64,000 nucleotides of DNA from Thermodesulfobacteriota bacterium. Its GTDB lineage: Bacteria; Desulfobacterota_D; UBA1144; Nemesobacterales; JAJCZQ01. The notes under the pieces are model-generated. The model was given only the letters and a program-made list of their open reading frames with translations, had not been told where the DNA came from and made no database searches. Every line of letters starts with the position of its first letter. The first letter of the stretch is position 1. Position numbers and translations under genes: made by a program. This document shows, one piece after another, positions 43,501 to 49,595 of this stretch. The DNA lies in assembly GCA_965215275.1 (NCBI GenBank), contig OZ244044.1:192001-256000 (forward strand), written 5' to 3'.

Positions 43501-44718
43501 TGCGTCCCAGACTTTCGGGTCTTCCTGCTCAACGAGTTTCTTTGCTATTTTAATGGTTAACGCGTAGCCCCATTCCTCGAGTTTCTGATAGATAAATGGC
43601 TTGAACAGTTCAAGTGCCATCTGCTTCGGCAATCCGCACTGATGGAGTTTCAGTTCCGGACCGACCGTGATCACGGACCTTCCAGAGTAATCCACCCTCT
43701 TACCTAATAGGTTCTGTCTGAACCTTCCCTGTTTTCCTTTTATTATATCGCTAAGGCTTTTTAAAGGTCTGCGGTTGTGTCCAAGTACGGGTCTGCCTCG
43801 TCTGCCGTTCTCAAGGAGTGCATCCACTGATTCCTGAAGCATTCTCTTTTCATTTCTTACGATAATGTCAGGTGCTCCTAGTTCCGTCAGTTTTTTCAGT
43901 CTGTTGTTCCTGTTTATGACCCTTCTGTACAGGTCGTTCAGGTCGGAGGTTGCAAACCTGCCTCCGTCCAGTGGTACCAGTGGTCTGAGGTCCGGCGGCA
44001 GAACGGGGATCATTGTTAAGATCATCCACTCCGGCTTGTTCTTTGACTTTCTGAACGCGTCACATACCCTCAGCCTTTTTGCTATCCTTGCTCTTTTGAT
44101 CAGATCTTTCGTTCTCTTGATCTCGTCTTTCAGATCCTCGGACAGGGCGAGCATATCCCTGTTCTTAAGCATTTCCCTGATGGTTTCAGCACCCATGCCG
44201 ACTTTGAAAGTCTGACCGAATTCGTCAAGCAGCTGTCTGTATTCTTCTTCGTTTATGACCTCGCCGTACTTTAATTTCGTAGGACCGGGGTCGTAAACGA
44301 CGTAAGCCTCAAAATACAAGGTCTTCTCAAGGTCTTTCAGGGTCATGCCCAGAAGCATGCGGATGATCTTCAAAAACCATATATGAACGGTCGGTGATAC
44401 GAGTTTAATATGGGCCATTCTTTCGCGTCTGACCTTTGAGGATATGACTTCAACCCCGCATTTTTCACACGTTATACCTCTGTGCTTTAACCTCTTGTAC
44501 TTTCCGCAGGTGCATTCGTAGTCTTTGACCGGCCCGAATATCTTGGCACAGAACAAACCGTTCCTCTCTGGTTTGAAAGTTCTGTAATTGATGGTTTCCG
44601 GTTTGGCTATCTCACCCCAAGACCACTCTTTTATCTTTTCTGGTGAAGCAATGGATATCTTTACCGTCGAATAATCGGATGGGTTCTTCGGTTTTTCAAA
44701 AAGGGTATCTATTTCCAC
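40555..44718 (-). CDS. rpoC: RNA polymerase beta' subunit
   Basis: NADFDGD, zinc fingers, TQLTMRTFH followed by an SI3-type insertion. Confidence 0.99.
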
Positions 44719-47700
44719 TTATTATCTAAACCTCCATTATTATTTTCTGTTTGCTCTTCGATCAGATCAACGTTCAGCACCAGGGATTGAAGCTCCTTCT
44801 GAAGCACTTTAAATGATTCAGGAAGCCCAGGTTCGAAGTTCAGGTCACCTTTCACTATTGAATCAAATATCCTGGTACGTCCCACTACGTCATCGGATTT
44901 AAAAGTAAGGAATTCCTGCAGGGTATAGGAGGCACCATAAGCTTCAAGTGCCCAGACTTCCATTTCTCCAAGTCTCTGTCCGCCAAAATGTGCCTTACCG
45001 CCCAGCGGCTGCTGGGTCACGAGCGAGTAAGGTCCGATCGCCCTTGCATGTATCTTTTCTTCCACGAGATGGTGGAGTTTCAGCATATACATTATCCCGA
45101 CCGTCACTTTCTGGTCAAAGGGTTCTCCTGTATGACCGTTGAACAGTATTGTCTTACCGTCCATCGGGAGGTCAGCTTCCTTGTACAGTTCTTTGATCTC
45201 GCTTTCCTTTGCTCCGTCAAATACGGGTACTTTGATCGGAATACCGTCTTTAAGGTCCTTGGCAAGTTCAACCACTTCACTATCGCTCAGGGAATCCAGG
45301 AACTTTAAAAACTCCGCAGAACCTGAATAATAGGTTTTAAACTTCTTTCTGAGCGAATCAGCACTGAACTCTGCTTCAATGTATTCGTTCAGCTGTCTTC
45401 CCAGTTCCTTGGCCACCCATCCCAGATGGGCTTCAAGTACCTGCCCCACGTTCATTCTGGACGGTACCCCAAGTGGATTCAGGACCATGTCGACCGATCT
45501 TCCATCAGGCAGGTAGGGCATATCCTCTTCCGCCAGTATTTTTGACACGACCCCTTTATTGCCATGTCTGCCGGCCATCTTATCCCCGACCTGGAGTTTC
45601 CTTTTAGCGGCTAAATAAACCTTGACTATTTTCAGGACCCCTGGCTGCAGTTCATCCGGTTTTTGCAGATTTGATATTTTCCGCTCGTATGCTTTTTTAA
45701 CTATATTTATATGCTCCGATGTACTGTCAACGATCGCCTTCACCTCGTTCTCGACCTTTGATGATCCTGCAACGTTTATATCCGGCAGTTTTTCGAACGG
45801 CACCTCGTTTAAGATATCTTCGGTTATGACCTCATCCTTTTTTAATATGGTCTTTCTGGCCAGTTTAAAACTGGATGCGGATCTTTTACCAGCTATCAGC
45901 TTGTTTACTTTACTTCTGGCGTCTTTTTCCAATCTGAGAACGTCTTCTTCCCTTTCCTGTTTTAATTTTGCGATATCAGAGGTATCTATCGCTTTGGAAA
46001 TACTGTCCTTATCAACTGCCCGGGATACTAACACCTTGACGTCAATGACCGTTGCATAGGTCCCGGGGGACGCTTTTAAAGAAGTATCTTTAACGTCACC
46101 GGCCTTATCACCGAATATGGCCTTCAGAAGTTTTTCCTCGGGAGAGAGCTGGGTTTCACCTTTCGGGGATATTTTTCCTACAAGTATATCTCCCGGCTTG
46201 ACCGTGGCCCCTATTCTTATAATTCCGTGTTCATCCAGGTTCCTCAGGGATTCTTCCCCTGCGTTCGGAATATCCCTTGTGATCTCCTCCTTGCCCAGCT
46301 TGGTTTCACGCGCCACGCATTCCTCTTCTTCTATGTGGATCGATGTAAAAGAATCATTTTTTAAAAGTCTTTCACTGACAAGTATGGCGTCTTCGAAGTT
46401 ATATCCTCCCCATGGCATAAAGGCCACGGTTATGTTCTTACCCAGGGCCAGTTCGCCTTCATCCGTGGACGGTCCATCAGCCACCACCTGTCCTTTTTTT
46501 ACCATCTGCCCGCTCGACACTATAGGCTTCTGGTTCCAGCAGGTGCTTTGGTTCGATTTCTGGAACTTGATCAGATTGAATATATCGACACTTCCATTTG
46601 TCCCTTCGGTGCCACTTGACCTTACCACGATCTTGTTTGCATCAACGTAATCCACTATACCGTCATTCTTTGCAATGGCGGTAACACCTGAATCCTTGGC
46701 AACTGTGCTTTCCATACCCGTACCTACGATCGGAGAACTCGTTTTTATAAGCGGGACCGCCTGACGCTGCATGTTCGATCCCATTAATGCCCTGTTAGCG
46801 TCGTCGTGCTCTAAGAACGGTATCAGCGAAGCAGATACGGAGACCAGCTGGTTAGGTGATACGTCCATCAGCTCGACCCTTTCACTTTTTTCCCTTTTGA
46901 ACTCACCTTCATGACGCGCGGAGATGAACTCGGCCTTGAACACGCCTTTATCATCAACGGGAGCATTTACCTGAGCTATAACGAATTTTTCTTCTTCATG
47001 TGCGCTTAAATGCACGATCTCATCAGTTACTAACCTGTCCTTTACAACTCTGTAAGGCGTCTGAATAAACCCATATTGATTTACCGTTGCGTAGGTGCTC
47101 AGGCTGGATATTAACCCGATATTCGGGCCTTCAGGCGTTTCAATGGGACATATCTTTCCATAATGTGATACATGGACGTCACGCACTTCAAATCCTGCTC
47201 TTTCACGTGTTAAACCACCAGGACCCAAGGCACTGAGCCTTCTCTTATGGGTGATCTCGGACAGGGGATTGGTCTGGTCCATGAACTGTGAAAGTTGTCC
47301 GGTGTTGAAAAATTCCTTCACGACCGAAGTGACGGTCTTCGGCATTAATATCTCACTTGGCATCATATCTTCTACCGGCTGGTAGCTCATCTTTTCCTTT
47401 ACTGATTTGGCAAGTCTTTTAACGCCGTGGTAGAACCTGTCCTCTATAAGTTCTCCTATTGTCTTTACTCTTCTGTTGCCAAGATGATCTATATCGTCCG
47501 TACTGCCCTTGCCTCCCTGAAGGTCGAGCAGATATTTGATCGTACGGCATATATCCTCTTTGCTTAAGTGAAGATGATCGTCAGGAAGGTCCATTCCCAG
47601 CTTATAGTTGATCTTTATCCTGCCGACCTTTGAAAGCCTGTAGGTCTCGGGATTAAAGAACATGTTCTCAAAAAAATCCCTGGCCACCTTTAACGTAGGC

Positions 47701-49169
47701 GGGTCTGTAGGTCTGAACCTTTTGTAGATCTCCTTTATTGCATCTTCGGCCGTCTTGGTCTTATCCTTATCATCAAGGAGCGTGTTCCTGAGAGAAGCAG
47801 AAACAGTATCATCGTCTATGTAAAAGACCTTGAACTTTTCTACGCTGTTTTTCTTCAGACCATCTATTACTTCGTCTGTGATTGGTTCATTGAAATCAAC
47901 AAGTATTTCACCCGTGTCCGGGTCCATTATATCCTCAGCACAAAAATATTTTTCCTTATCTGTGGTCAGACCCGTGATCTCGTTCTTATCTATCGGAAAG
48001 ACGTCAACTCCGGCTTTTTCAAGCTTTCTTAACGTTCCTTGCCCGAACCTCATATCTTTGCGGACAAGCGTGTCACCTGATTTTTTATCAACTATATCCA
48101 CACTGGCCTTCTGGTATTTTATAGTTTCTTGATTGATCTCTTTTTCAAATCCTTCCTCCGTTATATGAATGACCTCAACGGGATAATAGTAGTTCATTAT
48201 CTCACGTGGACCATAACCCATGGCCTTGAGAAGTATAGTGACGTGGAATTTTTTCTTTCTGTCTATCCTTACGTGCATCAGGTCCTTTGAGTCAAACTCA
48301 AAATCCAGCCATTTACTGCCTTCCTGGGGAATTATCCTTGCAAAGAAGGAACCTTTACCAAGCGAACTGTCCTTGCTCTTACCGAAGAACACCCCCGGCG
48401 AGCGATGTAGCTGGTTTACTATTACTCTTTCGGTTCCGTTTATAATGAAGGAACCATTACCGGTCATAATGGGAAGTTCGCCAAAGTAAACTTCCTGTTC
48501 CTTTATCTCCCGGATGTTCTTCTTATGTGATATTTCTACGGTTGCACCGGCTGCCTCTAATTTCTTCCTGACATCCTTAGCTTCTTCCTCTTCGGAGTAA
48601 TGCTCCACCTGCACGCCGTCTTCAGGGTCCTTAGAGACCAGTGCGATCAGGTCCTTGGCCCCTTTAACTCCCAGACCGGCAACTTCCTTTACGGTTTCGA
48701 TGACCTTATTTTTATCTTCACCGATCTGCTTCAGAGCAACCGTGTATGAAACGTCCCATACTATAAGTCTGAAAGTCACGTGCAGAGGAGAAACGTAGGT
48801 GTATCCTTTTAACCTGCATTCCCCTTCTTCATACTTGGGGTCGTCCAGTTTGTACCTTACATACTCCAGGCTGGATCTCTTGTTACTGTCCTCAACGGGA
48901 AAGACCGTCTTAAAAGCTGCATGCAGCCCTTTTGGCTCCCTGTCTTCGTGTTTTATTTCAGCCTGTAGGAAATCTCTGTAGGACTTGGTCTGAACTTCCA
49001 GCAGATGTGGGATATTTAAAACGTTCGGTATTTTAGAAAAAACCTTTCTATACAGGTGTCTCTCGTGTTTCTGCGCTCTCAGGTCAGATACGCTGTCTTT
49101 GCCAGCAGCTGTGAGCTGTGCCGTTATATGTCTTTCGTTTTTTTGTGCTCTCAAATTAGATACCCTCAA
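44709..49169 (-). CDS. rpoB: RNA polymerase beta subunit with an inserted bL12-CTD-like domain
   Basis: [43 protein letters not shown]; residues ~141-214 resemble the bL12 CTD; TTG start uncertain. Confidence 0.99.
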
Positions 49170-49205
49170 AAAATGTAATTAATAAAGATGTAATAAATGA
49201 AAAAG

Positions 49206-49595
49206 CTATGATATCTCTACGGTTGCACCGGCTGATTCCAGTTTATTCTTAATTTCCTCAGCTTCTTCTTTGTTTATATCATCTTTAACGTTTTTTGGGG
49301 CACTTTCTACGAGTTCTTTGGCTTCTTTGAGCCCTAACGAGGTAACCTCTCTCACGGCTTTGATGACCTGGATCTTATTTTCTCCAAAGTCCTTTAAAAT
49401 AACGCTTACTTCGGTTTTTTCTTCGCCACCTGGACTTTCCTGATCCGCAGCGGCACCTGGCACAGCTGCAACTGCCATCTGCGGTGCTGCCTGAATATCG
49501 AATTTTTCCTCTATCTCCTTGATCAGCTCTGATACCTCGAGCATGGTGGCTTTTTCCAGGTACGTAATTACATCGGATTTACTTATATCAGCCAT
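49206..49595 (-). CDS. rplL: 50S ribosomal protein bL12 (L7/L12)
   Basis: [25 protein letters not shown]. Confidence 0.98.

Follow-up and report, generated by a model that had tools for sequence, protein, structure and literature searches.

A C-terminal domain of ribosomal protein bL12 inserted into the β1 hairpin of RNA polymerase in one genus of Thermodesulfobacteriota

The RNA polymerase β subunit (RpoB) encoded in the 64,000-nucleotide stretch of Thermodesulfobacteriota DNA analyzed here (hereafter, the window; source genome G000) contains a homologue of the C-terminal domain of ribosomal protein bL12. The identity of this segment, RpoB residues 141-214, is confirmed. In our judgment the insert is probably a young, structural surface add-on in the β1 hairpin that was donated by rplL and no longer binds translational GTPases. 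Selection would retain the fold since the insert, if unfolded, would interfere with the adjacent strand that binds Mfd and CarD; both of these factors would still dock. The features of the locus, in window positions, are as follows.

44709..49169, minus strand: rpoB open frame of 1486 codons; the likelier start is TTG at 49154 (1481 amino acids), which is used by record P0006
48528..48749, minus strand: bL12 C-terminal-domain insert in RpoB, residues 141-214 (74 amino acids), PF00542 match with a predicted beta-alpha-alpha-beta-alpha-beta order
48750..48794, minus strand: strand 3 of β1 (protrusion), residues 126-140, continuous in the predicted fold with the insert's first strand
48486..48527, minus strand: strand 4 of β1, residues 215-228, continuous in the predicted fold with the insert's last strand
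48498-48506, minus strand: IKE motif in strand 4, residues 222-224, which docks Mfd and CarD according to PMC3001067
49206..49595, minus strand: rplL, intact bL12 gene directly upstream of rpoB (PF00542 at 103.9 bits, plus PF16320)
49209-49412, minus strand: C-terminal domain of rplL, likely donor of the insert, with a DNA match to it

Numbered from the start at 49154, the insert comprises RpoB residues 136-209. Pfam assigns residues 142-213 to Ribosomal_L12 (PF00542) with 45.3 bits (cut-off, 25.9 bits; E 1.1e-11), a match that covers profile positions 1-66 of 67; the insert of a second genome of the genus, G018, reaches 47.5 bits. The remaining Pfam matches in RpoB are the six usual β families, and nothing but PF00542 falls within the insert. 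BLASTP aligns the insert with the bL12 of its own genome at 33 of 72 identical residues (E 1e-16), and profile-profile comparison with L12 yields a probability of 99.3%. Of 68 codons aligned with rplL, 33 agree in amino acid (49%) with one 6-residue gap, and AGATVEIS ends both the insert and the rplL product. PF16320, the N-terminal dimerisation domain, was not found in RpoB by Pfam, and the flexible hinge is also absent. Judged against three genomes of the same family without the insert, about 5-6 loop residues were displaced. Only two PF00542 matches exist in the source genome, rplL and the RpoB insert. The initial annotation had proposed this domain at exactly these coordinates; its hand alignment to rplL, with the same identity, gap, and shared end, was reproduced, and both the replacement of a short loop and the L12 assignment were borne out.

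The 5' end of rpoB has peculiarities of its own. The distance from the stop codon of rplL to the likely start of rpoB is only about 50 nt (window 49170-49205), which leaves scant space for an attenuator. The RpoBs of the source genome and record P0003 have a 24-residue N-terminal addition (49057-49163, minus strand) that is missing from the clade of G018. This addition consists of two copies of a 35-nt unit, 72 nt apart and identical at 28 of 35 positions. The 38-nt stretch that they enclose is 89% identical (E 8e-8) to the 5' portion of a gene for tRNA pseudouridine synthase, located 445 kb away at G000:C1:685972-686009 (L076), and is read in a different frame. The addition represents a second capture of foreign sequence in the source rpoB.

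There is virtually no chance, in our estimate, that misassembly of the adjacent rplL and rpoB produced the insert as a chimera. Chimeras of these two genes are frequent, with L12 joined to RpoB in 19 of 41 matches in one search and in 7 of 152 proteins checked in another. However, every one of these joins lies at a protein end and involves an L12 that is nearly identical to the ordinary one, whereas the insert sits inside RpoB, matches rplL at only half of its residues, and has diverged between species. The insert is present, at the same site and with the same 74-residue length, in five distinct full-length RpoBs that are 82-96% identical: the source RpoB, P0003 (overall identity, 96%), and P0004 (genome G018), P0007, and P0008 (82-83%). 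The junctions were compared in eight of 21 listed runs (X2, X5, X6, X7, X8, X9, X11, and X12), as assembled contigs throughout. A single contig crosses both junctions in three of the eight (X2, X5, and X9), which come from three studies. X2 may be the run from which the source genome derives. The X5 contig, from a different study than X2, has 0 differences; the X9 contig, from the third study, has 62 differences in 1501 nt with no gap, and its residue changes match P0003. In X12 each junction is spanned by a separate contig, in X8 one junction is spanned, and in X6, X7, and X11 neither is; a joint that bypasses the insert was found in none of the eight runs. Misassembly is therefore rejected on the basis of the five distinct carriers, the junction-spanning contigs from several studies, and the divergence between species. 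Records P0157 and P0289 place an L12 domain behind a truncated RpoB, the shape expected from tandem duplication; both are single records and may be artefacts.

The insert is restricted to one genus of uncultured bacteria, whose same-order kin carry the names Candidatus Dadabacteria or Thermodesulfobacteriota in sequence records. PF00542 matched 117 of 120 genomes of the phylum and matched a second time in four; the second match exceeded the cut-off in two of the 120, in both cases within RpoB of the source genus (G000 and G018). A query made of the hairpin region matched 118 of the 120 genomes, and among 150 of 355 matches listed, one continuous match occurred only in G000 and G018. A search for the junction pattern returned one locus in genome_contigs (the G018 contig, L046) and 0 loci in metagenome_contigs. 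A scan of metagenome proteins returned four loci, each of them an ordinary rplL, and the ESM Atlas returned RpoB clusters and L12 clusters only, all under 0.9. Further RpoBs with an internal L12 domain were absent among 2 matches, the 120 listed of 587 matches (as judged from Pfam labels), 41 matches, and the best 150 representatives; for protein collections such negatives are weak, since in clusters formed at 50% an ordinary RpoB can mask the carriers, and word searches overlook worn copies such as those of genus g16 described below. The carriers form two clades, between which 41-46 of the 74 insert residues are identical and within which 66-68 are. The insert is likely young, having arisen at the level of the genus in its ancestor.

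Selection on the insert is purifying but relaxed. Comparison of G000 with G018, a single pair with dS near 1.2, yielded a dN/dS of 0.27 for the insert, with 41 of 74 residues identical (pN/pS 0.43; bootstrap 0.28-0.66). The corresponding value for the rplL domain is 0.074, with 60 of 68 residues identical (88%), so the insert is evolving about 4 times faster. Values for the remainder of RpoB (0.095) and for rplJ, rplA, and rplK (0.06-0.09) are similarly low, and RpoB residues 41-140 are elevated as well (0.25). At 55%, conservation is lower in the insert than in any other 74-codon stretch of RpoB measured, compared with 66-97% in 33 downstream windows. Against the close relative in X9, 6 of 11 changed codons are nonsynonymous, and most of these changes are conservative. 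Together with the dN/dS pattern, these changes indicate that the insert, which has a fixed length of 74 residues in all five carriers, is constrained, though loosely; as the initial annotation anticipated for a genuine domain, it is neither unique to one strain nor free of constraint.

The donor of the insert is likely the adjacent rplL, copied in the ancestor of the genus. The 3' end of rplL is the sole other place in the genome to which the insert has a significant DNA match (60 nt, 82%, E 7e-10), and this candidate lies 460 nt from the insertion site. Both inserts end in the codons ATA TCA, as do the two rplL genes of the genus and 0 of 27 other rplL genes listed; this feature was spotted post hoc, once the data had been seen. 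In a tree of 69 rows the insert falls between the bL12 rows of the source family with weak support, and a tree of 29 rows leaves its position open, with none of three placements rejected (p-AU 0.17, 0.51, and 0.29). Free L12-like domains do exist as repeats in unrelated bacterial proteins (six copies in P0009, four in P0010, and three beside EF-Tu domains 2-3 in P0014), so a different donor is conceivable, and the trees do not separate it from rplL. Against it, no third L12 domain was found in five genomes of the source family, the end codons are common to the insert and the rplL of the genus, the rplL candidate is close by, and joins of rplL and rpoB are frequent in sequence records. We regard a free repeat as quite an unlikely source. 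The repeat proteins have features of their own: the six L12 C-terminal domains of P0009 lie in a protein of 1481 residues, proteins of Myxococcales contain four, and in P0014, a single record, a lipoprotein-like leader precedes the three L12 copies joined to EF-Tu domains 2-3. The copying from rplL may have involved a local duplication spanning the 3' half of rplL and the 5' end of rpoB, followed by an in-frame deletion that would have left the L12 domain alone. Such an origin fits the architecture of the domain because the ends of the first and last strands of L12 are adjacent, so that these strands can extend those of a hairpin.

Twenty-two further RpoBs of the phylum were examined for inserts, including those of five of the six known genomes of genus g16 (family f5, a sister family). 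In all five, a module of 62-68 residues is present in β2, at a site different from that of the β1 insert; 16 of the 22 further RpoBs lack an insert at the g16 site. The modules, each likely a worn L12 domain, are located as follows.

L053:3629-3832, minus strand: β2 module of g16
L056:3528-3713, minus strand: β2 module of g16
L057:3574-3759, minus strand: β2 module of g16
L058:3616-3816, minus strand: β2 module of g16
L059:3680-3868, minus strand: β2 module of g16

Comparison of a profile of the module with L12 gave a probability of 41% and a score of 23.7; none of 200 shuffles of the columns scored above 19.7. Pfam detected PF00542 in one of the five (E 0.053). When the module was used to scan 9384 frames of G000, the RpoB insert ranked second and rplL third, ranks that are not significant. 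A model built without L12 rows shows a strand, a helix, two strands, a helix, and a strand; the second helix of L12 is missing. These results are suggestive but not significant; the g16 module is likely, though not proven to be, a second and older L12-derived insert. RpoB of g16 also has an additional insert of 18-22 residues near residue 88. An unrelated-looking insert of about 50 residues occupies the g16 site in G118 (L054), and G057 (L051) and G051 (L052) have 123 and 141 residues, respectively, inserted past position 610 of RpoB. The latter contain repeated DxxTGE-like motifs that recall BEAN domains, a likeness judged from the available text of PMC11515920.

We next consider residues by which bL12 contacts translation factors. 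E. coli numbering was set by an ungapped match to chain 3j7z_6; numbers above 99 are approximate and counted from the C-terminus. Aspartate at position 66 of bL12 cripples factor activation; our literature search returned no paper on this effect. In 116 distinct ordinary bL12 domains, conservation reaches 95% or more at 24 positions. All five carriers keep 12 of these (56, 58, 62, 65, 68, 74, 78, 79, 81, 103, 114, and 115), chiefly glycines and core residues; eight are kept in part of the carriers, and four (66, 80, 91, and 100) in none. Positions 91 and 100 flank the 6-residue addition of the insert. The exposed hydrophobic positions 66 and 80, conserved in 96% and 100% of the ordinary domains, are N or D and V or A, respectively, in all five carriers, residues that occur there in 0 of the 116. 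The EF-G contacts on bL12 described in PMC5887453 are V66-V68, K70, L80, and E82; positions 70 and 82 are lost in two of the five carriers, including the source genome. The initial annotation had correctly listed 66N, 70E, and 73K as changes and 65, 69, and 84 as kept; it had missed L80V and E82G. We read the pattern as loss of the hydrophobic hot spot with retention of the L12 fold.

Could the insert still bind translational GTPases and tether them, or the ribosome via them, to RNA polymerase? The initial annotation had suggested such a link to translation factors. The L12 homology extends over the whole length of the insert, and the GTPase-binding site of bL12 is positively charged (PMC6753160). 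K65 and K81 are present in all five carriers, as is a lysine or arginine at 73 and 84; K70 is found in three and replaced by glutamate in two, the clade of G018 retains K70, R73, and E82, and by hand count the charge of helices 4-5 is near that of the genome's own bL12. The basic residues thus largely persist, and the insert may retain some surface function. However, the loss of positions 66 and 80 in all five carriers, by replacements not seen among the ordinary domains, makes GTPase recruitment unlikely. The source genome has also lost K70 and E82, and the insert is conserved at 55%, below every downstream window, while the rplL domain of the same genomes is 88% identical. On this balance the tethering idea is highly improbable, and the proposed link to translation is not supported.

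How does the insert affect the hairpin in which it resides? We modeled RpoB residues 40-640 with AlphaFold2 from 35 alignment rows, 24 of them ordinary L12, a composition that leans the model to the L12 fold. The insert has a pLDDT of 76-89 per block and forms three strands and three helices in the L12 order; the whole model (601 residues) has a pLDDT of 70 and a pTM of 0.46. Strand 3 and the first strand of the insert run unbroken through model residues 87-110, as do the last strand of the insert and strand 4 through residues 170-194. The matches listed in a fold search with the 601-residue model are all RNA polymerase β chains. The insert is thus predicted to fold as an L12 domain that forms a rigid extension of the β1 hairpin.

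Mfd and CarD dock on the β1 lobe (PMC7864632, PMC4593161). Strand 4 bears the IKE residues and pairs edge-on with the interaction domain of Mfd; Mfd binding shifts the register of strand 4, and a flexible loop between strands 3 and 4 takes up the shift (PMC3001067). The IKE motif is kept in all five carriers, each of which also has the same five-residue spacing from insert to strand. A full-length Mfd frame is present in the source genome, as is a CarD whose context is conserved, so loss of either factor was rejected for this genome; CarD was not found in G018, but this genome is only 80% complete and the absence is uninformative. Prediction of a complex between CarD and the insert-bearing β fragment gave a score of 0.56, compared with 0.00 for the best control, and passes weakly; among solved complexes 116 of 157 attain the mark and among mismatches 2 of 215, but only 18 of the 157, along with both mismatches, do so with a score of 0.60 or less. 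At least 97% of contacts agree between runs, with a partner pLDDT of at least 77 and no interface given. The CarD-β pair is a textbook one that resembles solved complexes, a likeness that the pass may reflect. Record P0003 has four changes directly past the IKE strand, in a stretch otherwise conserved across the family, and the X9 contig has a matching cluster of differences at 48477-48487, beside strand 4.

The initial annotation had also raised the possibility of altered access of Mfd and CarD. Retention of IKE, Mfd, and CarD does not support a block by the insert. What survives of this proposal is subtler: the insert may be kept because it tunes binding, either through a stiffer loop that favors one register of the IKE strand or through a contact added beside the docking site. 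The loop that absorbs the register shift in PMC3001067 is the one replaced by the insert, the modeled strands are unbroken on both sides, and the insert-strand spacing is constant; but no compensating change in the interaction domains of Mfd or CarD was evident by eye between carriers and three non-carriers, and the likely L12-derived insert of the sister family occupies a different site, which suggests supply from the neighboring gene rather than selection for the hairpin site. We consider tuning, the main alternative to our reading, somewhat unlikely. It is tempting to speculate further that the tip of bL12 is a module of RNA polymerase recruited recurrently, independently, and recently from the upstream rplL, and that in the β1 hairpin it would serve as an internal switch that locks the docking strand for Mfd and CarD in one register and thereby alters transcription-coupled repair and promoter opening; we view this as rather unlikely. 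A young structural add-on donated by rplL is the reading that we prefer.

Compared with the C-terminal domain of bL12 (PF00542; PDB 1dd3, 1ctf, and 1rqu), the insert is alike in its full-length match over the cut-off, in the predicted order of strands and helices, and in its kept glycines and core residues. It differs in that the dimerisation domain and hinge are lacking and both ends are fused into RpoB, in six extra residues past the second helix, in the replacement of positions 66 and 80, and in its roughly fourfold faster evolution. Known lineage-specific inserts of β include BEAN (BBM2) and HABAS (SBHM) domains, such as β-i4 and β-i9 of E. coli (PMC11515920, PMC2939025). Like these, the insert is a folded, lineage-limited domain that interrupts a surface loop in frame and is less conserved than the core; with more than 50 residues, shared flanks, and purifying selection, it belongs to the general class of lineage-specific β inserts. 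It differs from them in fold, site, genus-level age, and the recognizable donor gene adjoining it. BEAN or HABAS identity was rejected, as the insert contains only PF00542 and lies outside the five insertion sites in β given in the available text of a 2024 survey (PMC11515920), none of which is in the N-terminal part of β-uD1. The term "L12" does not occur in that text, although the supplements of the survey may list rarer inserts, and a literature search whose coverage mostly excludes subscription journals returned no report of an L12 domain in RpoB. Relative to the inserts covered there, the L12 insert is a real addition in fold, site, and type of donor, and the initial annotation's contrast between a bL12-type insert at the Mfd/CarD hairpin and the listed inserts is supported. 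The same survey infers that insertions into RNA polymerase tapered off early and ceased in late lineages; it calls the mechanism of insertion unclear and suggests gene neighborhood as a possible factor. The present insert is of genus-level age and its likely donor is next door and still 49% identical, so the neighborhood idea becomes testable. In comparison with the complexes of the interaction domains of Mfd and CarD with β1 (PMC3001067, PMC4593161, PMC7864632), the IKE strand, both factors, and their interaction domains are present here, while the loop that accommodates the register shift is replaced by a domain in the source genus. The L12 insert is thus a natural experiment on the hairpin that docks Mfd and CarD, one in which this loop has been exchanged and both factors have been kept.
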